Below, in pieces: positions 22,283-38,633 of a stretch of 64,000 nucleotides of DNA. The first letter of the stretch is position 1. Each line of letters begins with the position of its first letter. Source of the stretch: Vulcanimicrobiota bacterium (GTDB lineage: Bacteria > Vulcanimicrobiota > Xenobia > Xenobiales > JADMJV01); the NCBI GenBank assembly GCA_050250895.1, contig JBFWNU010000001.1, positions 3,379,557 to 3,443,556 on the forward strand, in the 5' to 3' direction. The notes under the pieces are model-generated. The model did not search any database, had not been told where the DNA came from, and saw only the letters and a program-made list of their open reading frames with translations. A program made the translations under genes and the position numbers.

Positions 22283-22903
22283 TCAGGCTTCGACAAAGCG
22301 CTTTGCGACTTCTGTCCAGTTGATGATCTTGAAAAACGCGTCGACATAGTCGGCGCGACGGTTCTGGTAGTTGAGATAGTAGGCGTGCTCCCACACGTCG
22401 ACGCCGAGCAGGGGAATGTGACCCTTCATATGGGGGCTATCCTGATTGGGAGTCGAGTGGATCTTCAACTCGCCAGCGGCCAGACACAGCCAGGCCCAAC
22501 CGCTGCCGAACTGTCCGGTGGCGGCTTCTTTGAACTTCTTCTGAAAACCCTCGAGGTCGCCGAAGTGCTTTTTGATGGCTTGAGCCAGGGCTCCACCGGG
22601 TTTGCTTTCGCCGCCCGGAGCGATGACGTTCCAGAAGAGCGAGTGGTTGGCGTGACCGCCGCCGTTGTTGCGAACGGCTTCGCGGATATCCTCGGGGATA
22701 CTGCCGATGTTGCGTAGCAGTTCTTCGACGGTGCGGCCCTGCAGGTCCGAGTGGCCTTCGAGGGCTTTGTTGAGTTTATCGACATAACCCTGATGGTGCT
22801 TGGTGTGGTGAATCTTCATGGTGGCCGCATCGATCACGGGTTCGAGAGCAGCGTAGTCGTAGCCGAGAGCAGGCAATTGAAACTTGGTTTTAGTGGTACT
22901 CAT
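22283..22903 (-). CDS. sodA: Superoxide dismutase [Mn]
   Basis: HHTKHHQGY, NNGGGHANH, FGSGWAWL, DVWEHAYY; AAAGGAG RBS. Confidence 0.96.
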   Translation of the reverse strand: MSTTKTKFQLPALGYDYAALEPVIDAATMKIHHTKHHQGYVDKLNKALEGHSDLQGRTVEELLRNIGSIPEDIREAVRNNGGGHANHSLFWNVIAPGGESKPGGALAQAIKKHFGDLEGFQKKFKEAATGQFGSGWAWLCLAAGELKIHSTPNQDSPHMKGHIPLLGVDVWEHAYYLNYQNRRADYVDAFFKIINWTEVAKRFVEA

Positions 22904-23001
22904 GGGGTCCACTCCTTTCTAGGTGTACCCGATTATCCTAGCGGCGCGCCGGGGATAGGGTCTTGACCCACTCGGATAGCCCCCCTCCCCGCTACCGGAT
23001 A

Positions 23002-23169
23002 TCACGGGCAGCCGGCCGGTGTGCGGAGCGGTCTGACACTGGCCACGAGGTCGGGCTGGTTCACGCGCGCGTTGGCGAGTTCGCCTTTTCGCTCGATGGC
23101 GTAGCCGATGAGGGCCAGCACGAAGAGGTAGAAGACGGCTAGTCCGGCCGAGGCGGTGATAACTAACAT
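23002..23169 (-). CDS. Small single-TM protein
   Basis: AGGAGG RBS before the ATG; hydrophobic N-terminus. Confidence 0.55.
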   Translation of the reverse strand: MLVITASAGLAVFYLFVLALIGYAIERKGELANARVNQPDLVASVRPLRTPAGCP

Positions 23170-23215
23170 GACAACCTCCTTGAGGGGGCCGACCCGCGGG
23201 TCGGCCCCCAATCTT

Positions 23216-23965
23216 CTAAACTTGAGTGAGTCCGCCGTCGGCCACCAGCTCGGCGCCCACCACGAACGAAGAGTCGCTGCTAGCTAGGAACAAAGCGGCG
23301 GAGGCCAGCTCTTCAGGGCGGCCGAAGCGCTTGAGGGGAATCTCTTGCACGACCTGCTGTTGCCAGGCTTCTTGTTCCTGCTGGCTCAGTCCGATAGTCT
23401 CGAAGATGGGCGTGGCCACCGGGCCCGGGCTGATGGCGTTGACCCGGATGCCGCGGCCGATCAGCTCGGCCGAAAGGGTTCGAGCCAGTGATCTGAGGGC
23501 GGCTTTCGAGGCCGAATAGACGCTGGTGTTGGGCATGCCCGACTGGTTGGCCACCGAGGTGTTGAGCACGATCGAGGCTCCGTCGGCCAGGTACGGAAGG
23601 GCCTTCTGAATGGCGAAGTAAGGGCCTTTGAAGTTGACCTGCAAGAGGTGGTCAAAGTGGGCCTCGTCGACCTGGTCGATGGGGGCGAAGGCAGCCACGC
23701 CCGCGTTGAGGAAGAGCACGTCGACTTTGCCCCAGGCCCGGTCGACCTGGGAGAAAAGCTGGGTGAGATGTTGGGGGTCCGAGATATCCCCCTGAATGGC
23801 CAGGACCTGGTCGCCCAACTCGCCAGCGGCCTGGTCGAGCACTTCCTGGCGGCGCCCGGTGATGGCCACGCGGGCCCCTTCTTTAAGGAAGAGCCTGGCG
23901 GCGGCCAGGCCGATGCCGCTACTGCCTCCGGTGATGACTGCAACTTTGTTTTCAAGTCTACTCAT
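23216..23965 (-). CDS. SDR family oxidoreductase
   Basis: TGGSSGIG, NAG, YSASK, IRVNAISPG. Confidence 0.95.
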   Translation of the reverse strand: MSRLENKVAVITGGSSGIGLAAARLFLKEGARVAITGRRQEVLDQAAGELGDQVLAIQGDISDPQHLTQLFSQVDRAWGKVDVLFLNAGVAAFAPIDQVDEAHFDHLLQVNFKGPYFAIQKALPYLADGASIVLNTSVANQSGMPNTSVYSASKAALRSLARTLSAELIGRGIRVNAISPGPVATPIFETIGLSQQEQEAWQQQVVQEIPLKRFGRPEELASAALFLASSDSSFVVGAELVADGGLTQV

Positions 23966-24012
23966 TTGGGAATCCTTTCGGGACGGGTTTCGATAGACGC
24001 ATTCAATCATAG

Positions 24013-24667: not shown

Positions 24668-25348
24668 GTGAGCAACATCGACATTCATCTCAAGATCGAC
24701 CGCCACCGGTCGGGTAACACTCGCATCCACGGCCGCGTGGGGGCCGACCAGCACGACGTCAACGTCTGGAAAGGTCCACAACCTGGCGATGCCTACATCG
24801 AGGGACGCCAGAACGGGCAGCCCACCACGCTGCGCATCAACGGTGCCTTTTCGGACAGTGGCCAGGCCATTTTCGGCCGGGTGGCCGGAGTGCCGTTCAA
24901 AGGCAACTGGGCTCAGCAAGAGAGCGACGGCGACGCCCGGCTCGACCTGAACAAAGCCAATCTGACCATCGACAATGATCCCGCTGCCGGGACCACCGAG
25001 TCAAAAGGGACCGCTGTCAAGAGCAGCGGCAAAGTGGTCAACGCCGAAGGCGACGAAGAATTGACCCTTTTGGCTGACGGCCGCCGTATCAATCTTAGCG
25101 TGGACCGACAGCCGGGCGGCAACATCGAACTGCGCGGCCGCAGTGGAGACGGAAATTTTCGTGTCACCATGCGCCGCCACGGCCGCGAAGGCGACCTTCA
25201 GGTCGACGGTAGCTTGCCCGAGAACCTGGCTTTGCTACCCGTCATGTGGGAACTCTACGGCGACGACTCGGTCGAACCGCCGGCCAAGCCCCTGACCATG
25301 GGGGCGGCGGCAACCTTGAGCGCGTTCTGGGACACGCACCTGCGTTAG
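24668..25348 (+). CDS. Hypothetical beta-rich protein
   Basis: 226-aa ORF with typical codon usage, convergent with the radical SAM gene. Confidence 0.65.
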   Translation: MSNIDIHLKIDRHRSGNTRIHGRVGADQHDVNVWKGPQPGDAYIEGRQNGQPTTLRINGAFSDSGQAIFGRVAGVPFKGNWAQQESDGDARLDLNKANLTIDNDPAAGTTESKGTAVKSSGKVVNAEGDEELTLLADGRRINLSVDRQPGGNIELRGRSGDGNFRVTMRRHGREGDLQVDGSLPENLALLPVMWELYGDDSVEPPAKPLTMGAAATLSAFWDTHLR

Positions 25349-26862
25349 CGCGGCGGGGGAGTGCCCACCAGCGACGGGTCCCAGAAATCGCCCGACTCAT
25401 AGATGTGGCGCACCTGGCAGTAGATGAGCAGCGATTTGCTCACCGCCTCGGAGGCGGGCGTGCCTCGCCAGCGCAGACTCTGCTCTGTTAGCCGGCGCTC
25501 GCCATCACCTCGTTTGCGTAGCCGGTCCAAGAGCTGCAAAGCTACGGTCGACACTCCGGCTTCGGGACGGCAAGCTACGACCGGAGCGGGCCGCCCCACC
25601 AGCAGGCGCGCCATGGCTTCCAGCCGGCGCCCGTAGTTGTCGGGAGCATACAGATTGTTGGCCAGCCATCGTTGCCCCTCGACCAGTTGCTCGAGTGAGA
25701 AACCAGCGGGCTTGATGTTGGTCTGCCAGGGCCAGCCGAAGGCCACCTCGCGATCCTCCAGTCGCCCCTCGCGTCGGAGCCGGGCGTAAAGCGGGGTGCC
25801 CATCGGGGCCACCAGGCTAGAAAGAGTGAAAAGTGGCACGGGCGACTCCTGGGCGAAGGCAAATTGCCGCTCGAAAATGCTGGGGTCGTCGTTGTCAAAG
25901 CCGACCATCATTCCGGCGTGGACCAGAATTCCGTGCTCGAGAAATCGGCTGATGTCGGCGATCAAATCCCTCCCGACGTTCTGTCGTTTGCCGGTTTCTC
26001 GAAGGCTCGCCTCGTTAGGCGTTTCGACTCCGATGAAGACTTCACTCAGACCGGCCGAAGCCGCCAGTTCGAGCAGTTGGGGATCGCGGGCAGCGTCGAT
26101 CGAGGCCTGAGTTGCCAGCAGCACAAAGTTGCCTCGGCGCCGATTCCAGTCGCGAACCGCCTCGAGCACCTCGCGCGCCCGGGCGCGATGCACCAGGAAA
26201 TTGTCGTCGCAGACGAAGACCCGCGAGGCCCCGGCTGCGAGCAGCCCGTCGAGTTCTTGCAAGATGTTGGCCACCGGCTTAAACCGCTGACGGCGGCCCA
26301 GATACTGAATGACATCACAGAACTCACATTGGAACGGACATCCTCGCGACGTCTGAAGAGCCCCCAGCCGGGCGCGTTTGACCAGGTCGCGGCTCCATCG
26401 CGGGATAGGACTGGTCTCTAACTCGGGTCGCGTCCCCAGATAGGTGTCCCCGGCCTGACCCCGAGCCAGATCCGAAAAGAGCCCCTCGGCGATCTCTTCG
26501 ATCTCTCCGGTCACCAGCACATCGCAATGATCGCGCACCGCTTCAGGATCGAGGGTGACCCCGGGACCCCCCATAACGACGGTTAGTCCCCGTCGGCGAT
26601 AGCTGTCGCCGAGGGCCCGCATGCGAGGCAACTGGCTCGACTTGCCGGTGATGGCCACCACCGAGCCGTCAAAGTCGAGAGAGGCGGGGGTAAGGCGCTC
26701 GTCGCACACATGCACCTCGAAGAACGGTTCGGCCATGCTGGTCAGGGTGGGCAACACCAGGTCGGCGATGGCGGCCAGGGGCGTGGCTCCCCACTCGCGG
26801 GCGCAGTCAAGCTCGAAGAACGAGGGGGGAGCGGACGGGTTGATCAGGTAAAGGCTAGGCAC
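25345..26862 (-). CDS. B12-binding domain radical SAM enzyme
   Basis: TSRGCPFQCEFC (CX3CX2C) and N-terminal cobalamin-domain VVMGGPGVT. The GTG start overlaps the upstream stop. Confidence 0.92.
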   Translation of the reverse strand: MPSLYLINPSAPPSFFELDCAREWGATPLAAIADLVLPTLTSMAEPFFEVHVCDERLTPASLDFDGSVVAITGKSSQLPRMRALGDSYRRRGLTVVMGGPGVTLDPEAVRDHCDVLVTGEIEEIAEGLFSDLARGQAGDTYLGTRPELETSPIPRWSRDLVKRARLGALQTSRGCPFQCEFCDVIQYLGRRQRFKPVANILQELDGLLAAGASRVFVCDDNFLVHRARAREVLEAVRDWNRRRGNFVLLATQASIDAARDPQLLELAASAGLSEVFIGVETPNEASLRETGKRQNVGRDLIADISRFLEHGILVHAGMMVGFDNDDPSIFERQFAFAQESPVPLFTLSSLVAPMGTPLYARLRREGRLEDREVAFGWPWQTNIKPAGFSLEQLVEGQRWLANNLYAPDNYGRRLEAMARLLVGRPAPVVACRPEAGVSTVALQLLDRLRKRGDGERRLTEQSLRWRGTPASEAVSKSLLIYCQVRHIYESGDFWDPSLVGTPPPR

Positions 26863-29578
26863 CGAGAGTCCCCAATATCCTGAGATGGTGTTCCAGGGCC
26901 CTGGGGCGCAGAGACGCCACCACATCGGGCCAGCGAAGTTCCAGATTCAGGGCCAGGGAACGGGTCAGAAACTCGACTCGTTCGTCGACCGTTCCGTAGG
27001 CGGGCTGGGCCACTTCGACGAATTCGCCGCGGACCTGACCGGTGGGGGTAATCTGGGGATAGAAGGCCAGCAGTCGGGCCCCCGTTTCGACCGCCAGACG
27101 GGCGGCGCCCGAGCGAAACACGCGCCTTCGCCCACGAAATGCGACCACCACCCCGTCTTCACCGTCGTCCCAATCCACGGCCACCACTGCCACCCCTGCG
27201 CGGGAAAGTGCTCGTCGAGCCAGGTCCAACTGAATGAGGGACTCGGCGGTGGGATGCTGGGCGGGGTAGCCGAGTTGGCGTCGGGCCATCGTGCCCAGGC
27301 GGCCCACCGCCGCCAGGGGTCGGCCGGGGAAGGCCTCAGGGCCTAGCAGCAGGGGATTGAGCCGCGAATGGACGATGGCTAACACCGTTCCCCCTTCGGG
27401 CTCACTCCAGCCGCAGGCTGTAGTCCACTCGCTAGAGATGGCGTGGCGCCGCCATCGTGACCAGGTGTTGGCCAGCATGAAGCGGGTCAGTAGCGGGCTC
27501 CAGGGTTGCTCCACCTGGCTGACTTCGAGCAGTTGACGCAAAAGACCGAGCTCGGACCTCCACAGCCTGGTTGCCAGCCAGGGCTGGCTCAGCAGCCTGG
27601 TCAGCAGCCACGATCCCGCGGCATAAGGCAGAACCAGTCGACCCCATTGGGGTCCTCGTTCCCGCACCAGAGAAAGCCAGTTTTTGGCGGGCTTGTGTGG
27701 CCGTCCCGGGGGCGGGGCAGAAGGCGGTTGCATCGGGGGTGATTGGCCCATCACTAGAGCCACCAATCCATTCACGGTAGGTTCCTCGGCCAGGGCCTCA
27801 ACAGAAATCTCCACCGCCAATTGAGCCTCGAGACTCCAGATCAGATCCACCAGCGCGAGCGAGTCCAGGCCAACCGTCAGCAGATTAGCGTCGGCGTCCA
27901 GGGATTGACCCGTCTTGCTCTCGAGAACCCTGAGCACGTAGCGGACCAGGCTCTGGGGCGTTCGCTGGCGGGGAAGAGTGGGCTGGGTCGGGCCCCACCC
28001 CCTTAGCAGGTATGCTGCTCGGCAGGCTTGACGACGGAGTTTGCCGCTGGTGGTTACCTCGAGAAAGCCGGCTTCGACCAGGCGAACATCGGCCAGAACC
28101 AACCCGTGATGGTGCCAGATGGCGTGGCGCAAGTCGGCAGCCAGGAGCTCTTGCTGGGGGGGCGACAAAGATGACCGGCGTAGCTCGCCGATGAGCACCG
28201 CCGACTCGGTCGACTCACCGCCAGCCCGGATGCCGACCACGGCGACCCGCCGCAATCGATTTCCGCCAGCCTGCAGGGCTGTGTCTTCGAGGGGAGCGGG
28301 CGGGAAGTTGCGGCCTCCGCAGATGAGCATATCATCTTGACGTCCCACCACGTAAAGTTGACCGTTCTCGCAATAGCCGCGGTCGCCGGTGTGAAGCCAG
28401 CCGTCCTCGATGACCGCCGGTCCGTCCTCGAGATAGCCCGCCATGAGCGAGTGGGACCGGACCAGAATTTCTCCTGGTTGGCCATCCGAAACCATGCCGT
28501 GTTCTCCCCAAATGGCCACCTGGTTGCCCGGCAGGGCCGGACCGCAACTGACGACATCGTGGTCGTTCACCAGCATTCCGCCGTCGCTGATGGTCACCGC
28601 ACAAGTGGCCTCGGCCAGGCCGTAGCCGGCTCGAAAGGTCTCGGGACGAGCGCCGAAGGCTGCAAATTTTTGCCAGAAGTTGCGCATGGTTTCTGCTTGG
28701 ATCGGCTCTCCTCCATTGGCTACGATCCTCAGACTGCTCAGGTCAAGACCCGCCAGGTCCCGGGCTCGTGACCTGGTGGTGGCGTGATGATAGCCCCAGT
28801 TCGGCATGAAGATCATGCTGCCCGAGAATTCGCTGACGGCGCGAAACAGCAGCGAGGGGTTGCGCACCCACCGGGTGGGTGGCAGGGTGACCAGACGACC
28901 CCCGACTAAAAGCGGCATCAACAGATTCACCACCAGTCCAGCGTCGTGGTACCAGGGCATCCACCCTACCGCCACGTCGTCAAGGCCGAACGGAAAGGTG
29001 CGGGCCACGCAGTCGACCTGGCTCAACAGAGCGTGGGCCGAGATGAGCACGCACTTCGAGGCGCCGCTGGTGCCGCTGGTGAACTGCAAGAAGGCCGGCT
29101 CGGTGGCGGCTACCCTTCGGCCTTGAGCCTGCCGCTCGGGCAACCTGGCCGGGTCAAACTCGAGCACCGGGCAGGCTGCCTCAAGCTCGGCCCCGGGGGC
29201 GGCCACGACCGCCCGAATCGAGTATTTCTCCACCCGGGCAGCCAGGGTCGGCCCATAGACATCGGTGCGCCGGTATTGCGAGAGGTAGGGCAGGACAGCG
29301 GGAACCATCCCGGCGTAGAGGGCGCCCAGGAAGGCCAGGATCATGGCCAGGTCGTGCTCGCCCGCCAACAAGACGCGGCTGCCCGGCTCGAGACCGGCCG
29401 CCTCGAACCAGGCTGCGCTCCGGCGCACCCGTTGCAGCAACTGCCGATAGCTGACTTTTTCCTCGAGGTCTGGCTTGGGTAGTGACACCACTCCCCAGCT
29501 TCTGAGATCAGGCTCATCCCAGCGATCCAGAAGGTCGGCCAGGGGCGTGTCACAGTCGCCCCGAAGGCCGTGGGGCAT
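26855..29578 (-). CDS. Fatty acyl-AMP ligase + ACP + LpxL/LPLAT-like acyltransferase tridomain protein
   Basis: FLQFTSGTSG, WMPWYHDAGL, GYGLAEAT, TGDRG, TTSGK; ACP GLDSL; C-terminal VAVD...FRGRRRVFRSGAARLAVETGA. Confidence 0.85.
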   Translation of the reverse strand: MPHGLRGDCDTPLADLLDRWDEPDLRSWGVVSLPKPDLEEKVSYRQLLQRVRRSAAWFEAAGLEPGSRVLLAGEHDLAMILAFLGALYAGMVPAVLPYLSQYRRTDVYGPTLAARVEKYSIRAVVAAPGAELEAACPVLEFDPARLPERQAQGRRVAATEPAFLQFTSGTSGASKCVLISAHALLSQVDCVARTFPFGLDDVAVGWMPWYHDAGLVVNLLMPLLVGGRLVTLPPTRWVRNPSLLFRAVSEFSGSMIFMPNWGYHHATTRSRARDLAGLDLSSLRIVANGGEPIQAETMRNFWQKFAAFGARPETFRAGYGLAEATCAVTISDGGMLVNDHDVVSCGPALPGNQVAIWGEHGMVSDGQPGEILVRSHSLMAGYLEDGPAVIEDGWLHTGDRGYCENGQLYVVGRQDDMLICGGRNFPPAPLEDTALQAGGNRLRRVAVVGIRAGGESTESAVLIGELRRSSLSPPQQELLAADLRHAIWHHHGLVLADVRLVEAGFLEVTTSGKLRRQACRAAYLLRGWGPTQPTLPRQRTPQSLVRYVLRVLESKTGQSLDADANLLTVGLDSLALVDLIWSLEAQLAVEISVEALAEEPTVNGLVALVMGQSPPMQPPSAPPPGRPHKPAKNWLSLVRERGPQWGRLVLPYAAGSWLLTRLLSQPWLATRLWRSELGLLRQLLEVSQVEQPWSPLLTRFMLANTWSRWRRHAISSEWTTACGWSEPEGGTVLAIVHSRLNPLLLGPEAFPGRPLAAVGRLGTMARRQLGYPAQHPTAESLIQLDLARRALSRAGVAVVAVDWDDGEDGVVVAFRGRRRVFRSGAARLAVETGARLLAFYPQITPTGQVRGEFVEVAQPAYGTVDERVEFLTRSLALNLELRWPDVVASLRPRALEHHLRILGTLGA

Positions 29579-31298
29579 GCTGGATTGCCTGGTCACCGTC
29601 TCGTCACGAGATTTTCTAGTGGGTACGATGGTGATGTTGGGATCATTTGTCCGCCACCATCCGGACTTCGTCGGGGAGCTGATGGTGGTCCATGACGATC
29701 TCGACCCAGAGCAGCAAGAATGGTTGCAGCAACGGATTGGAAGGGCGGTCGGCTTCGTCCCTGCCGACCCTTCCCTGGTGGGTGCCACCGCTCTGTTGCG
29801 GCACCGATTGGCGCGATTTGAGCGACGTTATCGTCAGTTCTACTCATTGCAGGCAATTTCACTCGAGGGCTACCGAAAGGTAATCTTCTGCGACAGTGAC
29901 ACCCTTTTCCTTGCGCCCGTCCGGGACCTCTTCCAAGAGTCGTCCGAGTTGTTGGCCTGCCGGGATCGGATGACCATCCTGGGCCAACGCCGCTGCCGTA
30001 GAACCTTCGAGCCGGCTCCGCACAATGCGTTTGAAGCGACCTTCAATGCGGGTTTCATGGTATTCGATGGCAGCCGGCTCGGGGCCCCGGTCTTCGAGTC
30101 GGCTCTACGCTGGCTACGCCCAGAAATTCTGGCTGAGGTGCCGAATCACACCGATCAGTTTGTCCTGAATCATCTTTATGAGGGACGGGTCCACTGGCTC
30201 AGCAATCGATACAATTTCTTGCTGTCGGTGGCCCAAGAGCTTTTTGGCCAGGGGGGCCTCGAGGCGTCGCAGGTGCGAGTGGTTCACTTTGCCGGCAACG
30301 ACGCGACTCCCTGGACCGACTATCAAGCGACACCCCCAACTCGGGTCTTCTATGAGGCCTGGCACCAACTGGCCGACGAGCTGCTTCGGGTCGGCTTGTC
30401 GGCGTATTCCAACCCGCAAGGCCCGGGTGGGAACTACCTGGCCCACGGCCTGGTCTGGCGGTCTGAGGTGCCCCTCGAGGCGCCCCGGACCGGCAGGCCG
30501 CCTGACGTAAGAATTCGTTGGGGAGCGACGCCTGAACCTGATGCCAGTTGGAAGCGACTTCCTTATGGCTGGGCCAAACCCGACCAGTTTCTGGCCATCA
30601 CCCCTGGGGGCGGACGCCTGTGGGTCTCTCGGGGCCAAGAGATTTGTCTCGACCAGCAGTCAGAGGACCCGCAGCTATTCTGGCTCTATTTGGTGGGCCT
30701 GGCTACCGGGGCTCTGTTGCTCGAGCGGGGTGAGTTGGTCCTGCATGGAGATGCCGTGGTGCTCGACGACCGGGCCGTGGTTTTAGGCGGACCGTCAGGT
30801 TGCGGCAAGTCCACGCTGGCCTGTCAGTTGGGCGGCCGTCTGCTTTGCGACGACGTGACGGTGGTGCGCAACAGCCCCGCCGGTCTGACCGTGTTGGCGG
30901 GCCTGGGGCCGCTTAAACCTCGGCTGCTTGGCCTGGCCAAGAACGGCCATCCGGCGCAAGAGGTCTTGAGCGGCCGGCCTGCCCGAGCGGCTATCCCCAT
31001 CGAGCCGGCAGGTTCCCAGTTTCCGCTGGCGGCAGTCTATCTCCTCGACCAGCCCCCGGCCAGGATCCGGGGAGCGCGCCTGGCGGCCCTGGCCAAGACG
31101 CTGTTCTATCGGCCCGAACTGGCCGCCGCCCTGGGGCGCGCTCGGGAGAACTTCGACCACTTGCAGACTCTAGCCAGGACCCGGGTGGTGGGGCTCGAGT
31201 CCGCCGACCCGGCCGAGCAATCCAGGCGTATTCTTGCCGACCTGGAAGGAAAGATTTTCTGTCCCCCCGAGGAAGAGAGCGGCCATGGCCTGGTTTGA
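29577..31298 (+). CDS. GT8 glycosyltransferase fused to an HPr-kinase-like (lasso-peptide kinase type) domain
   Basis: GT8 motifs CDSD, FNAGFMV, DQFVLN, YNF, VHFAG; kinase LHGDAV..GPSGCGKSTL..LLCDDV. Confidence 0.85.
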   Translation: MLDCLVTVSSRDFLVGTMVMLGSFVRHHPDFVGELMVVHDDLDPEQQEWLQQRIGRAVGFVPADPSLVGATALLRHRLARFERRYRQFYSLQAISLEGYRKVIFCDSDTLFLAPVRDLFQESSELLACRDRMTILGQRRCRRTFEPAPHNAFEATFNAGFMVFDGSRLGAPVFESALRWLRPEILAEVPNHTDQFVLNHLYEGRVHWLSNRYNFLLSVAQELFGQGGLEASQVRVVHFAGNDATPWTDYQATPPTRVFYEAWHQLADELLRVGLSAYSNPQGPGGNYLAHGLVWRSEVPLEAPRTGRPPDVRIRWGATPEPDASWKRLPYGWAKPDQFLAITPGGGRLWVSRGQEICLDQQSEDPQLFWLYLVGLATGALLLERGELVLHGDAVVLDDRAVVLGGPSGCGKSTLACQLGGRLLCDDVTVVRNSPAGLTVLAGLGPLKPRLLGLAKNGHPAQEVLSGRPARAAIPIEPAGSQFPLAAVYLLDQPPARIRGARLAALAKTLFYRPELAAALGRARENFDHLQTLARTRVVGLESADPAEQSRRILADLEGKIFCPPEEESGHGLV

Positions 31299-31851
31299 CG
31301 GTCACGTGCGTGACCTGGGTGGGATTGACGAGCAACTGTTAGCACCGTTGCGCCAGCAAGTTTTGGAACGGGCCGACTTCTGGGCCGGAGCCGACCGCCT
31401 AAAGCCCAACCATTTTGCCTGTTTCGAGGGGGCGGCCGAGCATATCGTCTTTCGCTATCCCCAGAGCCCGTCCGACCACCGGCAGTCGGGCGACTTTCCG
31501 TTCTATCGCAAGTGGGCGCCTTTGATCGAACCCATCATCGAAGCCGCCACGGTCAGTTACGGGTTTGCGCGGGGACAGGCCTCGCGCATCATGCTGGCCA
31601 AACTTCGGGCCGGCGGCGAACTGGGGGTGCACGTTGACGCCGCCCCGTCGGCCGAGGTCCCGCACAAGATCCATGTCCCGCTGGTGACCAAGCCCGAAGT
31701 GGTCTTTATCGCCGAAGACGAGGCTTATCACCTGTCCGCTGGGCGGGCCTGGGAGGTCAATAATCGGGTTCTGCATGGTGGGCGCAACCCTTCGACCATC
31801 GACCGGATTCACTTGATTTTTGACTACTTTGACGCCCATGACTTGCACTGA
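31285..31851 (+). CDS. Aspartyl/asparaginyl beta-hydroxylase (Fe/2OG)
   Basis: HVD...IHVPL...NN..LHGGRN..DRIHLIFD. Confidence 0.88.
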   Translation: MAWFDGHVRDLGGIDEQLLAPLRQQVLERADFWAGADRLKPNHFACFEGAAEHIVFRYPQSPSDHRQSGDFPFYRKWAPLIEPIIEAATVSYGFARGQASRIMLAKLRAGGELGVHVDAAPSAEVPHKIHVPLVTKPEVVFIAEDEAYHLSAGRAWEVNNRVLHGGRNPSTIDRIHLIFDYFDAHDLH

Positions 31852-32797
31852 GGCCACTCGGTTCAAAGCTTGTCCCGGCATGACCGCCTGGTTGCTCGAG
31901 CGACAGGTCAGCCTGCTGGTCACCGGCTATGCCAGCGCCCGCCTCTTTCTGGTTGGCAGCCAGCAGGGCCGATTGAGCTTCCAGGAGCGGGACTTCGTGC
32001 CGTGTATGGGGGTGGCTGCCCATCGAGGCCTGATTTACCTCGGCACCCGTACCAGTCTCTGGAGCTTCGACCCCAAGCCCGGATACCTCAAGCCGGTTCG
32101 CTGCTGGGTGACCGACAACGTGCGCATTCACGATGTCGGGGTCGACCGGGTTGGAACTCCCCTGCTGGTCAACACCCTGCACAACTGTCTGGTGACTCCA
32201 CGCTCGCGGGGTATCGGCTTTGAGGTGGTCTGGAAGCCCGACTTCATCAGTTCGACCGAACAGGGTGACCGCTGTCACCTCAACGGCCTGGCCATGCACG
32301 CCGGCCGGGCGTGTTTTGTCACCCTGGTGGCCCGCAGCGACGAGGTCGACGGCTGGCGCCAAAGCAAAGTAGGTGGCGGTTGTGTGGTCGAAGTGTCGAG
32401 CCAGCGGGTCGTGCTCGACGGCCTGACCATGCCCCACTCGCCCAGGCTTTACCGTGATCGTCTGTGGGTGCACGACTCTGGCAGCGGATGGTTGGGCTGG
32501 GTCGACCAGACTCGAGGACGATTCGTTCGCCACGCCTTTGTTCCGGGCTTTCCCAGAGGACTCTGCTTCTGCGGAGACTACGCCCTGGTTGGAGTTTCGA
32601 CCATCCGTTACTTTGGTCAGACCGAGTTTCCCATCGAGGCAGAGTTGACCAGTCGGGAACTCGACGATTTTTGCGGGGTCTGTGTGATCTGTCTCGAGAC
32701 GGGAGCCACGGTGGGGACGCTCTCGTTCGAGGGTCTGGCCGAGGTGTATGACCTGGAAGTGATCCCAGCCCCGCACCTCGAGTTGAGGTGGACTTGA
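31838..32797 (+). CDS. TIGR03032/DUF4915 family protein
   Basis: VNTLHNCL, WKPDFIS, DRCHLNGLA, GLTMPHSPR, PGFPRGL. Confidence 0.88.
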   Translation: MTCTEATRFKACPGMTAWLLERQVSLLVTGYASARLFLVGSQQGRLSFQERDFVPCMGVAAHRGLIYLGTRTSLWSFDPKPGYLKPVRCWVTDNVRIHDVGVDRVGTPLLVNTLHNCLVTPRSRGIGFEVVWKPDFISSTEQGDRCHLNGLAMHAGRACFVTLVARSDEVDGWRQSKVGGGCVVEVSSQRVVLDGLTMPHSPRLYRDRLWVHDSGSGWLGWVDQTRGRFVRHAFVPGFPRGLCFCGDYALVGVSTIRYFGQTEFPIEAELTSRELDDFCGVCVICLETGATVGTLSFEGLAEVYDLEVIPAPHLELRWT

Positions 32798-33342
32798 GCT
32801 GGTTCGAAGGCAAGATCCGTGAGCTGGGTCCGGTCAACTGTACCGAGCTGACGGCGATGGTCGAACGGACCTCGAAGGCGGTCTGGACAGCCCAGAGTTT
32901 TCGGCAAGATCATTATGCGGTGCACCACCAGACCCGCTCGCTCATTTTTCGCTTTCTGACCGGCGATGGGCTCGAGGGTGTAGACCAGCCCCCCTGGCTG
33001 GCCTGGAAGAGCCTGGTCGAGCCGGTCATCGCCCAGGCTGTTGAAAGCTACGGCTACCGGCAGGGGCGATGCGCCCGGATCATGCTGGCCAATCTGCCGG
33101 CAGGCTCGTCGATTTCACCCCATCGCGATGTCGGCGAGTCGTTCGCCCGCACCCATCGGCTGCATGTGCCTTTGCTCACCCATCCCGAGGTGTGCTTCGA
33201 ACTCGACGGCGAGCCCTTTCACCTGGCCCAGGGACATGCTTACGAAATCAACAATCTGCTCTCGCATGGGGTGACCAACCCGGGCCCAGGAGACCGCGTC
33301 CACCTCATCTTCGACTATTACGAGGCCTATGAACAGACCTAA
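32788..33342 (+). CDS. Aspartyl/asparaginyl beta-hydroxylase, second copy
   Basis: ISPHRD..HRLHVPL..EINNLLSHGVTN..DRVHLIFDY. Confidence 0.88.
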   Translation: MDLSWFEGKIRELGPVNCTELTAMVERTSKAVWTAQSFRQDHYAVHHQTRSLIFRFLTGDGLEGVDQPPWLAWKSLVEPVIAQAVESYGYRQGRCARIMLANLPAGSSISPHRDVGESFARTHRLHVPLLTHPEVCFELDGEPFHLAQGHAYEINNLLSHGVTNPGPGDRVHLIFDYYEAYEQT

Positions 33343-33964
33343 GGTTTTTGGAGTAGGCTTGCCCAAGACCGGCACCACTTCTCTGGGGCGCGCTCTCGAG
33401 TGGATGGGCTATCGGGTCTGCGGCGGGCTCGGTCAAAGGGTGCGCGCCCGGGTCGAGAGCGGCGACCCCATCGAGGCCGTGGTGCCAGAGTTGGTCGAGC
33501 GCGAAGTCGAGCGCCATGACGCTTTTCAAGATAATCCCTGGCCGGTGCTTTTTGAAGAGATGGCCCGACGGTTTCCCGATAGTCTTTTCGTCTTGACCCT
33601 GCGTCCCGAGCAGGAATGGCTGGCCAGCTTCGTTCGCCATTTCGGCTCACGGCACTCTCCCTTGCGCGAGTGGATCTTCGGGGCGGGAGCGCCGGAGGGT
33701 AACGAACAGGCCTATCTTGATTTCTTCCGAGTTCACTATCGTCGGGTCCTGGAGCATTTTGCCGACCAATCCCATCGGCTGTTGGTACTTCGCTTATGCG
33801 AGGGAGAAGGCTGGCAACCCTTGTGCCAGTTTCTGGGACAACCCCAGCCGGACCAGCCCTTTCCCCACCTCAACAGCGCTCGGGCCAGGGCCCAGCGCCA
33901 ACTGGATCAGGTGGTCGACGAGCTACGCCGGCAGCGACGTCACCAGTCCGAGTCGTTTTCGTAG
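33329..33964 (+). CDS. Sulfotransferase family protein
   Basis: KVFGVGLPKTGTTSL PAPS-binding loop; GWQPLCQFLG..FPHLN. Confidence 0.88.
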   Translation: MNRPKVFGVGLPKTGTTSLGRALEWMGYRVCGGLGQRVRARVESGDPIEAVVPELVEREVERHDAFQDNPWPVLFEEMARRFPDSLFVLTLRPEQEWLASFVRHFGSRHSPLREWIFGAGAPEGNEQAYLDFFRVHYRRVLEHFADQSHRLLVLRLCEGEGWQPLCQFLGQPQPDQPFPHLNSARARAQRQLDQVVDELRRQRRHQSESFS

Positions 33965-34713
33965 CCGAGTTCGAGCAGCAGGTCTCCAAAGCGTCTTTTG
34001 AACTCGCCTTTGATCTGGCTATTGAAGTGGTCACGCCAGTCTCCGGCGACTCCGCGCCGGTAGTGGTGATGGACGTCGACCTGACCGCGCGGGCGTCCCT
34101 GGCTCTGGGCCTCAAAGCCGTATCGGTCGAGGGCTTGCTCGAGCAATTCCTGGCAGTCGAGGCGCAAGAACGCAAAAGCCTGGTGCAAGACCGGTCGAGG
34201 CGACTCGATCAGGTCTTCAAAACGGAGTCTCAACAAGCGGTCGGACCACCCGCCACACTCGCGCAACTGCTCGAGGTAGACCGAGCTATAGTCAAGCTCG
34301 AGCAGCAGGCCTTGCTCCATGGGGAGGCTCTCGAGGCTTTGTCGGTGCTCGGCCTGGTAGGCGTGCCTCACCGGGTGGGAATAGCGGTGGGAATAGTAGC
34401 ACGAGACCAGCATGTCCCGCGGGTCTCGGATGAATTCACAGCCGCGGTAGTCGACTCTTTCCAATCGTTCGATCACAGCTGCGTGAGCGTTGCGGTGCAA
34501 GACCACATCCGAGCTGTTCAGGGCGCTTTCCCAACGGTGCAGCATTTGCAGCCAGGCGGCGATCGATTGGGGATGGCGGTGGGCGCGGGCGGGCAAGTGC
34601 TTGGGGCGATGCTCCTGAGTTAGGTCGAGGTCCAGGCCACGCGCTACGAACTTGACCACCTCGCGAACAAAGGTCGAGGCGCAACGGTGATGACACAGAA
34701 AGGCCCTGACCAT
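33940..34713 (-). CDS. Sulfotransferase domain protein
   Basis: HHRCAST, RDPRDMLVSCYYSH, RFEDL, HYRRGVAGDWRDHF. Confidence 0.88.
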   Translation of the reverse strand: MVRAFLCHHRCASTFVREVVKFVARGLDLDLTQEHRPKHLPARAHRHPQSIAAWLQMLHRWESALNSSDVVLHRNAHAAVIERLERVDYRGCEFIRDPRDMLVSCYYSHRYSHPVRHAYQAEHRQSLESLPMEQGLLLELDYSSVYLEQLRECGGWSDRLLRLRFEDLIESPRPVLHQAFAFLRLDCQELLEQALDRYGFEAQSQGRPRGQVDVHHHYRRGVAGDWRDHFNSQIKGEFKRRFGDLLLELGYENDSDW

Positions 34714-34714
34714 C

Positions 34715-36349
34715 TCACGCCTTGCCCGCCTCGACCCACTCCAAGAAGCGTCCCACCAGAATGGTCCGGACCAGGACCTTCAGGGCGAGATGGTAGGCCC
34801 CCGCCGAGAAATCGTCGTCGGCCGGAAGATGATGGAACAGGGGGCGAACCTGATCCCAGTCGATGAAGTGGTTGCAGAGTTGGCTGTTAGTCAGTCGCTC
34901 GAGTTCGCCGCGAAGCGCGGGCGCACAGCCGCGCAAACGGGCTTGCCAGCCAACGTCTTGCATGCCCACGGTGGACCGGTCGAGGACCAGGTCGGGCACG
35001 ATCCCTCGCAGGCTGTCGCGCACGGCCCGGCGCTTTTGTCCCTCGCGAGCAAAGAACTCGCGGGGGGCCTGCAGGCAGAACTCCACCATTCGAAGATCGG
35101 TGGTGGGGTCGAGTTCTTCCAGTCCAAAGCGCCCTCGCCAGTAGTTATGCAAAGCACCCACTTTGCCCCGCAGATAGATGCGCAAGAAACGACCGCGGGG
35201 GCTCTGGTCGATGGCTCGCAATCGCTTCTCGAGTTCCAGTTCTCGGGCTCGTTCCGGCCGCAGGGCGAGGTCGGCCTTGCGCACCGCGCTGCCCCGGCGA
35301 AGCCCAAGCGAGGTGGCCAGACGTTTCTTCCAGTTGGTCTTGGGCAGGCCCGAGGAGGAGAAGAGCAGATTGCCTCCCCGACCTCCGATGAGAACGGTCA
35401 AGCCAGTCTCGACGGCCCGGGCCGCGATCTTTTCTCCCCAGCCTCCGAAGAGATGACGGGCGGGCTCGCCGGTGAGAGCGTGCCACTGGTCGTCGATGGC
35501 GGCCAGCGGATCACCGGGATCGCGTACATACTCGATCTTCAGGTTGGGATATTGCACGAGCACAGCGTCGATGAAGGGCTCGTCGCGATAGCTACGCCCA
35601 GGCGGCGCGGGCGCCTGACAATCTTCGGGTGGCAAGTAGGTGAAGCAGGGAAACTTTCGCTCGGGCCTTTGCCGGGCCGCCAGGCACGCTACCGAAGTCG
35701 AGTCCAACCCTCCGCTCAGGTGAAAGCCCACCTGTGTGTCCTGGGTCAGACAGTCCTCGACGGCGCAGGTGAAGAGGTCTCGAAACCGAGACTCGAGTTC
35801 GGGCAATTCCCCTCGACGCAGAGGACGATGCCAACGAAAGTCCGCCGGAGACCAATAGCTCTGGATTCGCGTCTGTTGTCCGTCAAAAAGCAAGAGATGA
35901 CCCGGGGGAAGCTGGCGCAGGTCTTTAAACATAGTGCGGCTGGGCTCGGCTGTGCGCAAACCGCCTCCCACCAGCGCTGCGGCCACCGCCAACGGGTCGA
36001 CCTCGGTCCCCACGCCGGGCAATTGCCGTAACCGGCGGATGTGGTTCGACAGCCAGAGCGGGTCGCCCGAACGATAGTAGAGGGTTCGGCCCCCCAGCGG
36101 TCCTCGGATGGCCACCAGCCTTCGTTCCTCGGTGTTCCAAAAGACGGCGCAAAAGTCATGGGCGACCCGGCTGCATTCGGCCGCCCCTTTGCTCAAGTAG
36201 GCCGCCAACAAGTGCTGCACGCCGCTGGCATCGACGGGAAGGTCAGACCGAAAGCGGGCGTCGGCCACGCCGAGCCAGGGCCCCACGGCTTCGCCGGACC
36301 CGCCGCCGACTGCGACCCGCCCATCGACTTCAAGGCAGAAATCAGCCAA
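34715..36349 (-). CDS. Asparagine-synthetase-like lasso cyclase (C protein)
   Basis: LSGGLDS PP-loop, GGRGGN, DPTTDLRMVEFCL. It lacks the N-terminal catalytic Cys of true AsnB and lies directly downstream of precursor A1. Confidence 0.85.
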   Translation of the reverse strand: MADFCLEVDGRVAVGGGSGEAVGPWLGVADARFRSDLPVDASGVQHLLAAYLSKGAAECSRVAHDFCAVFWNTEERRLVAIRGPLGGRTLYYRSGDPLWLSNHIRRLRQLPGVGTEVDPLAVAAALVGGGLRTAEPSRTMFKDLRQLPPGHLLLFDGQQTRIQSYWSPADFRWHRPLRRGELPELESRFRDLFTCAVEDCLTQDTQVGFHLSGGLDSTSVACLAARQRPERKFPCFTYLPPEDCQAPAPPGRSYRDEPFIDAVLVQYPNLKIEYVRDPGDPLAAIDDQWHALTGEPARHLFGGWGEKIAARAVETGLTVLIGGRGGNLLFSSSGLPKTNWKKRLATSLGLRRGSAVRKADLALRPERARELELEKRLRAIDQSPRGRFLRIYLRGKVGALHNYWRGRFGLEELDPTTDLRMVEFCLQAPREFFAREGQKRRAVRDSLRGIVPDLVLDRSTVGMQDVGWQARLRGCAPALRGELERLTNSQLCNHFIDWDQVRPLFHHLPADDDFSAGAYHLALKVLVRTILVGRFLEWVEAGKA

Positions 36350-36352
36350 TGG

Positions 36353-36493
36353 TCACGACAAGGCGTAAGAAGGAGCAGTCCCCCCGCCGTCGCCCGGATT
36401 GGTATCCATGTTGGTAGCCAGGGTGTTGGAGATATCGAGGCGCGTGAGAACGGGGGCGTTCCACGGTCTGCGCAGGCTGGGCTCATTACTCAT
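36353..36493 (-). CDS. Lasso-type RiPP precursor A1: MSNEPSLRRPWNAPVLTRLDISNTL-ATNMDTNPGDGGGTAPSYALS
   Basis: Manually translated 46-aa ORF with a WxxPxLxxLDIxxT leader; stop lies 3 nt before the cyclase start. Confidence 0.88.
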   Translation of the reverse strand: MSNEPSLRRPWNAPVLTRLDISNTLATNMDTNPGDGGGTAPSYALS

Positions 36494-36567
36494 TGCCAGC
36501 CGTTTCGACGGCCTCAATCGGGGCCCTGCTGAAGGATTAGCGCGACCGATGCCAAAAGCGACAATCG

Positions 36568-36834
36568 ATGCTCTCGCGCAGTAACAACATCGTCGCTAGC
36601 GAACTTGATGGGGACCTCGTCATGATGAGCGTGGATACCGGTAATTACTATTCTCTCGACGAGGTGGGAGCGGCCATCTGGGAGCTGCTCGACCAGCCCC
36701 GTCCGACCGGTGAACTCGTAGAAGGGTTAGTCAAACGCTTCGAGGTCGAGCGCGAGACCTGTCTGGAAGATATCAAGCCCTTTTTGGCCGAACTGTTAGC
36801 CGAGGGGATCTTGATCGAGACCGCTCAAGATTGA
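36568..36834 (+). CDS. PqqD family RiPP recognition element (lasso B1)
   Basis: DGDLVMMSVDTGNYYSLDEVGAAIWELL..FEVERETCLEDI..FLAELLAEGIL. Confidence 0.93.
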   Translation: MLSRSNNIVASELDGDLVMMSVDTGNYYSLDEVGAAIWELLDQPRPTGELVEGLVKRFEVERETCLEDIKPFLAELLAEGILIETAQD

Positions 36835-36965
36835 TAACTGCCCATTCCGCCCCCGCCATCTGGCGGGTTGCCAGCGAGGGTGGTAGAGAGCGTGTTGGCG
36901 ATCTCGAGCCGGGTTAGCCGGGGTGCCCGCCAGGCACGGCGCGGCATTTCTTGTATGTCTGACAT
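36825..36965 (-). CDS. Lasso-type RiPP precursor A2: MSDIQEMPRRAWRAPRLTRLEIANTL-STTLAGNPPDGGGGMGSYQS
   Basis: Manually translated 46-aa ORF, paralogous to A1 (RRxWxAPxLTRL[DE]IxNTL, NPxDGGG, SY..S). Confidence 0.88.
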   Translation of the reverse strand: MSDIQEMPRRAWRAPRLTRLEIANTLSTTLAGNPPDGGGGMGSYQS

Positions 36966-37006: not shown

Positions 37007-37198
37007 TTAGAAGGCGAAGGCGCTGGTCAGATTGGCCACCAGATCGTTGGCCTCGTCGTCGTCCTCGAAGGCCTCGGCGCCCAGGTTGATGTGGTCGCAA
37101 GGGGCGACCGTCCCCGCCACTTCGGGAGCCTGGCCGGCAAAACTCCAGAGTTGATTCTGGTTCTGGAGTTGACTGGTGGAGATGTAAGTGTCTTTCAT
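37007..37198 (-). CDS. Small acidic hypothetical protein
   Basis: 63-aa ORF with a GAGG RBS, co-oriented upstream of A2. Confidence 0.55.
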   Translation of the reverse strand: MKDTYISTSQLQNQNQLWSFAGQAPEVAGTVAPCDHINLGAEAFEDDDEANDLVANLTSAFAF

Positions 37199-37295
37199 CG
37201 TCGTGAAACCTCGCTGCCCTTTGATTCTGCCACAGCAGCCTTAAAGAAACCTTGAGCCCGCCAGGGATCTCGCCTTGACGACGGAAGGTCGGGGC

Positions 37296-38633
37296 ATGAA
37301 GCGCCCTTCACAACTCGAGCAGTTTCTTGAGAGCCAGCAGGAGGTCGGCCAGACCGAGTCCCATGGCGCCTTTACCATCGCCCGAGACGAGGCGCTCAGA
37401 AAACTGGCCTCGTTTCGGCTGCCCTTCGAGCGCGCCTGGGTACTCAAGATCGTGCAGGCGGCGGTGGCCTCGGGGGCGCCTTCGCTCGACATCAAGCAAA
37501 CCTCCACCGATACCGAATTCCACTTCGCCGCTCCCAAGAGCTGGACGCTCGAGCGGTTGGAGGCGGCCTTCTTCAACCCCCAAATGTCAGGAGATCGCGC
37601 CCTGGACCATCTCCTGGCGGGTCTGTGGGGCGCCAGCCTCAACGATGGCCGGCCTTTCCAACTGCTCTGGCCCGGCTGCCCCGAATCGCTGATCTGGTCG
37701 GGCCGCGAGATGACCCGCATCCAGGACCCCGAACCGGTGAGACAAATGCAACTGGTGGTCTCGCACCGGCGCCTCGAGGAAGGCAAGGGGATCTTCGGTA
37801 TTCGCTACATTCAGGCCGCCCAGCGCAACGCCGACATTCTCAAGACGCTGACCCACCGGGCCTTCACCTGTTCCATTCCGCTGCGGGTCGACGCCCGTCG
37901 CATGGACGCCCTGCCGCTCTCTCCCAATCACGGTTATAGCCAGGCCAATCATCCCGTCTGTGTGGGCTGGGCCCCCGGCGGTTCGCTTGTCCTGCCGCCG
38001 GGGACCTTCGCGGGTGTGCTCCCCTCCGAACAGACCCACAAAAAAGAGGCCACGCGCTCGCTATCTTCTCAGGTGGAACGGCCAGCCGTGCCCGACACTA
38101 ACAAGGTTGTGGCCGCCTGGCTGATGACCACGCATTTTGAAGAGGTCAAAAGCGGCAAGAGCAAGACCTGGAAGCTGCGCGACCAGGCCAGCAAGCTCTA
38201 CTGGGTTCATGACGGGGTGATTCTTGGCTCGGAAGAACTCTTTCCCATCGAGAGGTCTGTTTCCATCGGAGTGTTTGCAGACGCGGGCGACCTCAAACTG
38301 GACGTCACCGGCTTCGGCATCATCCACGAAGAGGCGCACGAGGCCCGCAGGAAGCGAGTGCTGCAGACGGCGGCCGCCGCTTTCGAAGCGGTCCCGGTCA
38401 TCTCGCTGCAGGGCCTGGTCGAGGATGCCCAGCAATCGGGTCGCTCGGTAGGCACCGTCATGGCGGTGGGGGGAGTGTTGACGCTGGCCCTATCGCCCTT
38501 GCACTCGTTGATGTTCTTCGCCGGGGCCGCCTTTTCTTATTACACGGCCGGCAACGTCGAGGCCGGCATCGAGAGTGGTTTGCAGACGGCCCTTTCTGAC
38601 CTGCGGGCTCAGTACTTGTCCGAGTGGGGTTAG
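37296..38633 (+). CDS. Hypothetical protein, same N-terminal module family as 7786-10038, with C-terminal TM
   Basis: ESHGAFTIARDEALRKLASFRL..KIVQAAVASGA. Confidence 0.7.
   Translation: MKRPSQLEQFLESQQEVGQTESHGAFTIARDEALRKLASFRLPFERAWVLKIVQAAVASGAPSLDIKQTSTDTEFHFAAPKSWTLERLEAAFFNPQMSGDRALDHLLAGLWGASLNDGRPFQLLWPGCPESLIWSGREMTRIQDPEPVRQMQLVVSHRRLEEGKGIFGIRYIQAAQRNADILKTLTHRAFTCSIPLRVDARRMDALPLSPNHGYSQANHPVCVGWAPGGSLVLPPGTFAGVLPSEQTHKKEATRSLSSQVERPAVPDTNKVVAAWLMTTHFEEVKSGKSKTWKLRDQASKLYWVHDGVILGSEELFPIERSVSIGVFADAGDLKLDVTGFGIIHEEAHEARRKRVLQTAAAAFEAVPVISLQGLVEDAQQSGRSVGTVMAVGGVLTLALSPLHSLMFFAGAAFSYYTAGNVEAGIESGLQTALSDLRAQYLSEWG

Follow-up and report, generated by a model that had tools for sequence, protein, structure and literature searches.

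We analyzed a 64,000-nucleotide (nt) window of the genome of a Vulcanimicrobiota bacterium (contig JBFWNU010000001.1; the window is the whole stretch of DNA examined, and positions refer to it unless stated otherwise). The interval 25345-36965 is, in our judgment, fairly likely to be an intact kinase-associated, paeninodin-like gene cluster for a lasso-type RiPP (a peptide made by ribosomes and modified after translation), with an enlarged tailoring set. It holds 12 genes with hardly any intergenic space. We called the genes by scans with Pfam and NCBIfam profiles, and the E-values of the family matches across the cluster lie between 1e-6 and 1e-89, so the assignments are not due to chance. 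All 12 frames are open, their motifs are intact, and the overlaps of starts and stops have been kept. An initial annotation of this DNA had listed two precursors, a RiPP recognition element (RRE), a cyclase, a GT8-kinase fusion, two Asp/Asn hydroxylases, a TIGR03032 protein, two sulfotransferases, a fusion of fatty acyl-AMP ligase (FAAL), acyl carrier protein (ACP) and acyltransferase, and a B12-dependent radical S-adenosylmethionine enzyme (rSAM). We found every one of them at the place given. Its proposal of a new peptide class was too strong, since by its leader motif, RRE, cyclase, kinase and C-terminal Ser the locus belongs to the kinase-associated lasso peptides already known; the product is probably a new, multiply modified variant. 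What distinguishes the locus is the GT8-kinase fusion, the paired short AspH-family hydroxylases, the propeller, the absent protease and the position of the acceptor Asp, and possibly also the acyl and methyl modules.

The two precursor genes, A1 (36825-36965, minus strand; P0001) and A2 (36353-36493, minus strand; P0002), are paralogous open reading frames (ORFs) encoding 46 amino acids (aa) each, and A2 lies 3 nt upstream of the cyclase gene. They are 56% identical in protein and 55% identical in DNA sequence, and a crude estimate over 45 codons gave a ratio of nonsynonymous to synonymous substitution rates (dN/dS) of ~0.37 with synonymous sites near saturation. This pattern suggests that A1 and A2 are real coding genes conserved at the protein level, and both appear to be under purifying selection. 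In each, a T-L pair is followed by a small residue, and a second T-x occurs three residues further on. Lasso precursors as a rule carry Thr at position -2 of the cut site, and Thr stands at -2 of the inferred site in A1 and A2. The core of both holds a single conserved acidic residue, the Asp of an NPxDGGG stretch, which would be core position 10 if the cut follows T-L and position 7 if it follows the second T-x; the latter cut leaves Leu or Met as the first core residue.

Both precursors also carry a WxxPxL leader motif and a C-terminal Ser. Discrete lasso RREs bind [Y/W]xxPx[L/V/I/F/A], and W is nearly invariant at the first position among paeninodin-like precursors (PMC13381572), while the C-terminal Ser is the residue phosphorylated by PadeK-type kinases (PMC8498205). 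We aligned five candidate precursors from four loci of the source genome, in which the placement of a 93-aa sequence from one sister locus (L011) was forced. The leader W and P, a Tyr 2-3 residues before the end and the terminal Ser were invariant in all five, the Ser being present in both precursors here and in the three candidates from the sister loci, and the T-L pair with its small residue was likewise common to all.

The RRE (lasso B1; 36568-36834, plus strand) is PqqD-like, matching PqqD at 6.7e-21 and lasso_PqqD_Bac at 82.3 bits (cut-off 80). A predicted complex of RRE and precursor scored 0.44, against 0.01 for the best control, with contacts agreeing by at least 93% between runs and a partner predicted local distance difference test (pLDDT) value of at least 52. 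Of 80 solved complexes, 58 had reached the mark used for such predictions, as had 2 of 110 mismatched pairs; at scores of 0.60 or below, however, just 7 of the 80 had done so, along with both mismatches. The prediction thus lends weak support to binding, and the pass may reflect mere likeness, because RRE-leader complexes have already been solved. The cyclase gene (lasso C; 34715-36349, minus strand) encodes a putative 544-aa Asn-synthetase-like macrolactam cyclase that matched Asn_synthase at 1.1e-23 (85 bits, cut-off 21). Its translation contains an SGGLDS motif, and a PDB sequence search returned one amidotransferase at 4.4e-11.

Five plus-strand genes make up the larger part of the tailoring set. 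The first (29577-31298, starting at 29577 or 29628) encodes a fusion of a GT8 glycosyltransferase with a predicted HPr-kinase-like P-loop kinase. The GT8 domain matched Glyco_transf_8 at 4.2e-16 and GT8 by structure in the Atlas (template modeling [TM] score 0.85); the kinase domain matched HprK_rel_A at 4.7e-07 (29.2 bits versus a cut-off of 200) and Hpr_kinase_C at E = 0.017. In the translation, DSD can be read in the GT8 part and a GPSGCGKST Walker A loop in the kinase part. Hydroxylase 1 (31285-31851), a short Asp/Asn beta-hydroxylase-like enzyme of the Fe/2-oxoglutarate (2OG) type, overlaps the stop of this gene by 14 nt (Asp_Arg_Hydrox 1.7e-06, 28.4 bits, cut-off 22.6) and is 36% identical to hydroxylase 2 (32788-33342; 1.9e-10, 41.3 bits), a second short enzyme of the same type. 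Between the two, and overlapping them by 14 and 10 nt, lies the TIGR03032/DUF4915 gene (31838-32797). The run ends with a Sulfotransfer_4-type sulfotransferase, ST4 (33329-33964; PF17784, 1.5e-33), which has a readable PKTGTT loop and a 14-nt overlap with the stop of hydroxylase 2. Because these five genes overlap by 10-14 nt throughout, they would form one translationally coupled operon.

A second sulfotransferase gene, ST1 (33940-34713, minus strand), is of the Sulfotransfer_1 type (PF00685, 3.9e-12); its match covers only profile positions 97-250 of 255, and its N-terminal 3'-phosphoadenosine 5'-phosphosulfate (PAPS) loop is divergent. ST1 lies one base from the cyclase stop, has weak paralogues in two sister lasso loci, and is likely to be co-transcribed with the cyclase. 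The initial annotation had described the whole locus as one tightly overlapping block. That description suits the five plus-strand genes from GT8-kinase to ST4 and, with gaps of 1-3 nt, ST1-cyclase-A2; it does not suit the locus as a whole, in which the strand changes five times and the RRE is encoded opposite to the cyclase and both precursors.

The TIGR03032 copy scored 293.6 bits against a cut-off of 251.5, and 4.7e-89 for DUF4915. Its AlphaFold model is a six-bladed beta-propeller (pLDDT 90.8) whose structural matches are generic propellers (TM 0.5-0.6), a fold that ruled out our candidate reading of it as a hidden Cys protease. Neither TIGR03032 nor DUF4915 was met with in the full-text literature searched, and 15 genomes of the same family yielded no TIGR03032 gene.

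Two observations tie the plus-strand operon to the peptide pathway. By tblastn within the source genome, the kinase domain is 41% (157 aa), 30% (237 aa) and 30% (269 aa) identical to the kinases of three further lasso-type loci, each of which adjoins RRE and cyclase genes, and this homology links the operon to the peptide pathway. The main argument that the tailoring enzymes act on the peptides is that the genome has two loci in which cyclase and RRE are accompanied by all of kinase, GT8, oxygenase and sulfotransferase. Its second occurrence, L010, lies ~31-36 kb past the end of the window and contains a cyclase, an RRE, a kinase, a GT8, a 2OG oxygenase and several sulfotransferase-family genes. 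L010 shares with the window locus the divergent arrangement of cyclase (minus) and RRE (plus), the kinase, GT8, sulfotransferases and oxygenase, the lack of a B2 peptidase gene, and a precursor with a terminal Ser and a late Tyr. It differs in that GT8 and kinase are separate genes, that the oxygenase is a 2OG-FeII_Oxy_3/TPR protein, that TIGR03032, FAAL and rSAM are lacking, and that the core has Glu7/Asp8.

The other two sister loci carry related sets: YcaO, precursor, kinase, sulfotransferase, RRE and cyclase, again without B2, in L009, and kinases, a sulfotransferase, RRE, B2 and cyclase in L011, a canonical locus on contig 9. As side observations, the YcaO of L009 (L009:3832-9897, C1 ~2.162-2.168 Mb) is paired with a four-Cys precursor ending in Ser, and the product may be an azoline- or thioamide-bearing lasso peptide. 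In L011, the sole precursor-like ORF between RRE and B2 (L011:10559-10840, plus strand) is the 93-aa sequence with a WxxP leader; its T-L pair is followed by Gly-Gly, core position 9 is Glu, and the tail is very long, with Ser as the last residue.

With the kinase fused to GT8 and coupled to the hydroxylases and a sulfotransferase, and with kinase, GT8 and sulfotransferases repeated in the sister loci, the earlier proposal of a phospho-, glyco-, hydroxy- and sulfo-modified product is reasonable. We propose that the RRE would bind the leader, and that the tailoring enzymes, like the known kinases and CanE, would have the linear precursor as their substrate. The kinase domain would phosphorylate the terminal Ser, and the fused GT8 domain would add a hexose nearby, on the phosphate or on an adjacent Ser, Thr or Tyr. 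The two hydroxylases could target the conserved Asn and/or Asp of the NPxDGGG stretch. The sulfotransferases, using PAPS, could modify the conserved Tyr 2-3 residues before the end, or a sugar or hydroxyl; PAPS should be available, given two adenosine 5'-phosphosulfate (APS) kinase genes in the genome, and the late Tyr is the best sulfation candidate because of its invariance in the alignment. The leader would then be removed by a B2 peptidase encoded elsewhere in the genome, and the cyclase would link the new N-terminus to the only conserved Asp, closing a ring of 10 residues after a T-L cut or of 7 after a cut at the second T-x. If the FAAL-ACP-acyltransferase and rSAM take part, a fatty acyl group, possibly methylated, might be placed onto a sugar or hydroxyl.

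Several observations weigh against this reading, beginning with the two minus-strand genes at the low-coordinate end of the interval. The rSAM gene (25345-26925) matched Radical_SAM at 7.5e-15 and DUF4070 at 1.2e-06, both above cut-off, and a B12-binding domain at 2.2e-06, just below it (27.9 versus 32.1 bits); the protein thus has the N-terminal B12-binding domain of class B enzymes together with a radical SAM core in which CxxxCxxC can be read. Its best NCBIfam matches (PhpK-type, lipid B12-rSAM and ApyD) were far below cut-off. The reading frame adjoins, or runs into, the 3' end of the FAAL gene (26855-29788 as longest ORF, with the true start probably near 29578 or later), which encodes a FAAL (AMP-binding, 3.7e-57; best NCBIfam match a fatty acyl-AMP ligase at 271 bits, below cut-off), a carrier protein (PP-binding, 1.8e-11) with its Ser motif in place, and a C-terminal domain of 288 aa. 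This domain matched PF03279 at E = 0.016 (14.9 bits, cut-off 22.3) and the PatA model at 7.9e-06 (25.1 bits, cut-off 209), and in the Atlas it had a feature score of 0.92, with 22 of 30 matches in PF03279-carrying sets. From these three agreeing sub-threshold signals it is a probable LpxL/PatA-like acyltransferase; FAAL and ACP are as first annotated, whereas the acyltransferase part is weakly supported, all of its profile scores being below cut-off. A PDB sequence search gave no useful match for this domain or for the GT8-kinase.

These two genes are a pair on the minus strand, diverging from the start of the GT8-kinase gene, and they are linked to the cluster by adjacency alone. The "lipo" and "+14" (acyl and methyl) elements of the initial annotation depend on nothing but this adjacency; the membership of the rSAM in the pathway is uncertain, and we see about an even chance that the pair acts on the peptide. 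The best-surviving alternative, to which we assign somewhat less than an even chance, is that two neighboring pathways meet here, the lasso core and GT8-kinase operon making a peptide while the FAAL-ACP-acyltransferase and rSAM constitute a separate module for a lipid or glycolipid. The two halves are joined by nothing more than adjacency and the divergent start region they have in common, the acyltransferase resembles lipid A and phosphatidylinositol mannoside (PIM) acyltransferases, the weak NCBIfam matches of the rSAM include lipid and hopanoid enzymes, and a paralogue of FAAL or rSAM lies near none of the three sister lasso loci. Moreover, lipid genes upstream at 19473-24010, interrupted by a superoxide dismutase (SOD) gene, encode a PAP2 phosphatase, a membrane protein of the lysylphosphatidylglycerol (LPG) synthase type, a diacylglycerol (DAG)-kinase-like lipid kinase and a short-chain dehydrogenase/reductase (SDR); they offer the FAAL module another home, which makes an independent lipid module a serious rival reading.

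On the other side, no gene lies between the module and the GT8-kinase operon, and their start-to-start gap is at most ~110 nt. Neither the module nor the rest of the cluster turned up in any of the 400 other genomes of the phylum searched, a distribution that fits gain as one block. Acyl-carrier-dependent lipidation is also reportedly known for other RiPPs, in a preprint on lipoavitides (10.1101/2023.10.25.564083). Finally, in a relative of the same family (L200:2065-10832; G008:C92), kinase, RRE, B2 and cyclase genes lie on one strand, and the run continues on that strand with another putative tailoring set, which comprises an unassigned 283-aa gene, one for an AMP-binding enzyme, one for a PNPOx-P450 fusion and one for an ATP-grasp protein of the sugar-transfer type. 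The AMP-binding gene behind this kinase-RRE-B2-cyclase run leans toward a link between FAAL and the peptide.

The cyclase and the ring raise a further doubt. The lasso-cyclase model was the best NCBIfam match of the cyclase, yet at 122.6 bits (1.8e-35) it stayed well under the cut-off of 525, and the N-terminus is ~50-80 residues shorter than those of three paralogues (longest ORFs 594-627 aa). The homology-based cut after T-L leaves no Asp or Glu at core positions 7-9, and natural lasso rings are said to have 7-9 residues (PMC8498205). The product may then be no threaded lasso but a branched-cyclic macrolactam, or linear, like the linear polyphosphorylated peptides (LPPs). We regard this as unlikely, though not negligible. 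The short, divergent cyclase, the acceptor Asp at position 10 and the locus's lack of B2 all fit it, and kinase-bearing RRE clusters with linear products exist (PMC13381572). However, the gene that follows A2 is an intact cyclase gene, the leader carries W where the linear family has Y, and a ten-residue ring has been made, in vitro only, in the fusilassin/fuscanodin system of Thermobifida fusca (PMC8498205). Nor does the genome contain an archaeal-type signal peptidase above cut-off (TIGR02228, at most 18.7 bits genome-wide versus a cut-off of 51.85, with no match in the window). Given the ring size and the short, low-scoring cyclase, the product may or may not be threaded.

The missing protease and exporter, a point on which the initial annotation was silent, bear on whether the cluster works at all. 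We searched the whole genome for B2 peptidases (PF13471) at E ≤ 1 and obtained four matches above the family cut-off, two of them in B2-sized frames. None of these lies in the window, where the sole match is at chance level (E = 0.7) and contains three in-frame stops. No exporter or transporter was found in the window either, and no ABC exporter flanks the locus. These two frames score as true B2 genes and map to C1:933 kb (96.6 bits) and C9:233 kb (82.3 bits; cut-off 33). The second sits within the sister locus L011; the first is 2.5 Mb from the window and far from any cyclase or RRE. This orphan gene (L012:7383-7913, plus strand; C1 ~933.4-933.9 kb, 96.6 bits) comes immediately after type II secretion E and F genes. 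Both related genomes examined carry their B2 within the locus, but three of the four lasso-type loci of the source genome are without a B2 of their own. The simplest reading of this gene distribution is that B2 acts in trans, with the orphan B2 as a candidate shared protease for the three B2-less loci.

The search for relatives elsewhere also counts against the proposed cluster. Among genome contigs the cyclase gave 47 pattern matches and no close relatives. Precursor A2 retrieved only itself from a collection of 5.8 billion proteins, and a profile of A1 and A2 gave four matches at E ≤ 0.001 among 1.84 billion representatives, two of which were the queries. We rejected the other two, stretches of 19-24 residues inside proteins of 2303 and 323 aa, as Gly-rich chance matches. 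Among 8000 scored candidates the GT8-kinase fusion was found nowhere else, the search returning itself and a tandem GT8-GT8 protein, its nearest GT8 relative; in 401 genomes of the phylum, four others matched it, in the kinase part only. The acyltransferase domain was present in one of the 401, namely the source genome itself. Five related genomes, too diverged for a comparison of synteny (~68% nucleotide identity), matched only the SOD gene and a 226-aa ORF (24668-25348), at unlinked places. From these comparisons the locus looks unique among the genomes searched. Because relatives of these genes did not turn up in the other genomes searched, the support for tailoring comes from the operon structure and the sister loci.

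This isolation, together with the absence of B2 and exporter and the short N-terminus of the cyclase, is what a decaying or silent cluster might show: a duplicate lasso locus that has lost its protease and exporter and makes no product. We consider this improbable, since none of the 12 frames is interrupted or has lost its motifs, starts still overlap stops, and the precursors have a dN/dS of ~0.37 at saturated synonymous sites; the lack of B2 in most of the lasso-type loci, while an orphan B2 exists, looks instead like a shared arrangement.

The TIGR03032 gene presents a different difficulty. We collected 2206 relatives at E ≤ 1e-10 among 3473 candidates and inspected the neighborhoods of 80 genome loci (out of at least 597 relatives) and 80 metagenome loci (out of at least 359 relatives; 36-46% identity among the matches listed, with the three closest homologues, P0005-P0007 at 48-51%, outside the sample). 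By tblastn, matches to the RRE, kinase, hydroxylases and sulfotransferases were found near none of the 80 genome loci and none of the 80 metagenome loci; an Asn-synthetase-like match occurred in one locus only and an AMP-ligase match in three. The commonest neighbor was an FG-GAP repeat protein, at 32 of 80 loci. For this one gene of the annotated set, then, the relatives sampled occur apart from RiPP genes (0 of 160 loci), a pattern that the initial annotation had named as counting against its reading, so the TIGR03032 family as a whole is not a RiPP family, and the copy here, embedded in the operon by its overlaps, would be an unusual recruitment. One might argue that A1 and A2 are not the substrates of the GT8-kinase-to-ST4 operon, which would modify some other protein or a glycan and lie beside the lasso genes by coincidence, since TIGR03032 normally neighbors large FG-GAP proteins rather than RiPP genes and GT8 and sulfotransferases are generally common in glycan loci, but we hold this to be the least probable alternative, as the kinase domain is homologous along its length to the kinases of three lasso loci, L010 again has GT8, kinase and sulfotransferases in the company of cyclase and RRE, and no FG-GAP protein was found among 10 large window ORFs scanned.

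We thus retain the reading of an intact, kinase-associated lasso-type cluster. In its fullest form it would combine the first natural ten-residue-ring lasso-type peptide, a bifunctional kinase-glycosyltransferase that puts a sugar-phosphate on the C-terminal Ser, beta-hydroxy-Asn/Asp, Tyr-O-sulfate, an acyl chain placed by the FAAL-ACP-acyltransferase on a sugar or hydroxyl, one orphan B2 serving three protease-less clusters, and the TIGR03032 propeller as a peptide-handling partner. That all of these should hold jointly is rather improbable.

Among the known systems close to this locus are the paeninodin-type clusters (PadeK, ThcoK, SyanK), with which it shares a discrete RRE, a terminal Ser and a WxxP leader and, as predicted, an Asn-synthetase-like cyclase and an HPr-kinase-like enzyme. 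Unlike in those clusters, the kinase here is fused to GT8, no B2 or transporter is present in the locus, core position 10 or 7 holds the acceptor Asp, and there are in addition two hydroxylases, a propeller, two sulfotransferases, the FAAL-ACP-acyltransferase and the rSAM. The pseudomycoidin cluster also couples a kinase (PsmK) to a sugar-adding enzyme, but the latter is a nucleotidyltransferase-fold protein (PsmN), whereas the sugar enzyme here is a GT8 of the GT-A fold, and general Pfam scans of the cluster ORFs found no nucleotidyltransferase family. With canucin A, whose C-terminal Asp is beta-hydroxylated by the Fe/2OG enzyme CanE, the locus shares an (here predicted) Fe/2OG hydroxylase whose target is an Asp in a lasso precursor that is still linear (PMC8498205). 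The proteins here, however, are two short members of the AspH/LpxO family, and with Ser as the last residue of the precursors, they would have to modify an internal Asn or Asp. What the initial annotation had stated about paeninodin, pseudomycoidin and canucin A agrees with that review (PMC8498205). The LPP clusters of Bacillota (Popov et al. 2026, PMC13381572) share an RRE with an HprK-like kinase, need no B2 in the cluster and frequently lie beside glycan genes; they have YxxP leaders, an archaeal-type signal peptidase, a nucleoside triphosphate (NTP) transferase and no cyclase, in contrast to the W leader and cyclase here (PMC13381572).

The available text of two reviews lists as lasso modifications a disulfide, phosphate, phospho-hexose, methyl, acetyl, hydroxyl, D-residue, citrulline and succinimide; sulfate, a sugar installed by a glycosyltransferase and a fatty acyl group are absent from both lists, and a sulfotransferase gene beside kinase-type lasso clusters is mentioned there solely as uncharacterised (PMC8498205, PMC9266682). 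Such lasso tailoring combinations were found nowhere in the full-text literature searched, which comprised main texts and included few papers from subscription journals. The locus brings a GT8 domain and a Ser kinase together on one polypeptide with a candidate 46-residue substrate, a setting for coupled phosphorylation and glycosylation, and it sets the uncharacterised TIGR03032/DUF4915 family, with more than 2,000 relatives, beside a small, defined candidate substrate. It is also a natural test of whether lasso cyclases close rings of more than 9 residues and of whether one B2 protease serves several clusters in trans. Four points lend themselves best to testing: whether the kinase-glycosyltransferase is bifunctional, whether the conserved Tyr is sulfated, how large the ring is and whether the protease is shared.

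Around the cluster, the 226-aa ORF at 24668-25348 has orthologues, 58-63% identical, in three genomes without the cluster and was therefore excluded from it. At the other end, 41 nt upstream of A1 and on the same strand, lies a 63-aa ORF (37007-37198, minus strand) with an acidic C-terminal half, for which neither a family in Pfam or NCBIfam nor a paralogue elsewhere in the genome was found, and which may be co-transcribed with A1. A scan for promoters and terminators gave 3 and 5 sites, no excess over shuffled sequences. The flanks of the locus hold signaling genes and a multi-copy family. The latter is represented by a 452-aa protein (37275-38633, plus strand) without a family match, whose first ~120 residues match more than 40 places in the genome, pointing to a large lineage-specific paralogue family. 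A stretch of ~115 nt at 39328-39442, inside an ORF with a weak collagen-repeat match, belongs to a repeat family, with many matches at 72-86% identity in all five related genomes searched. Further on, a 1213-aa protein (41499-45140, minus strand) joins a CheB methylesterase and a CheR methyltransferase to PAS and GAF domains.

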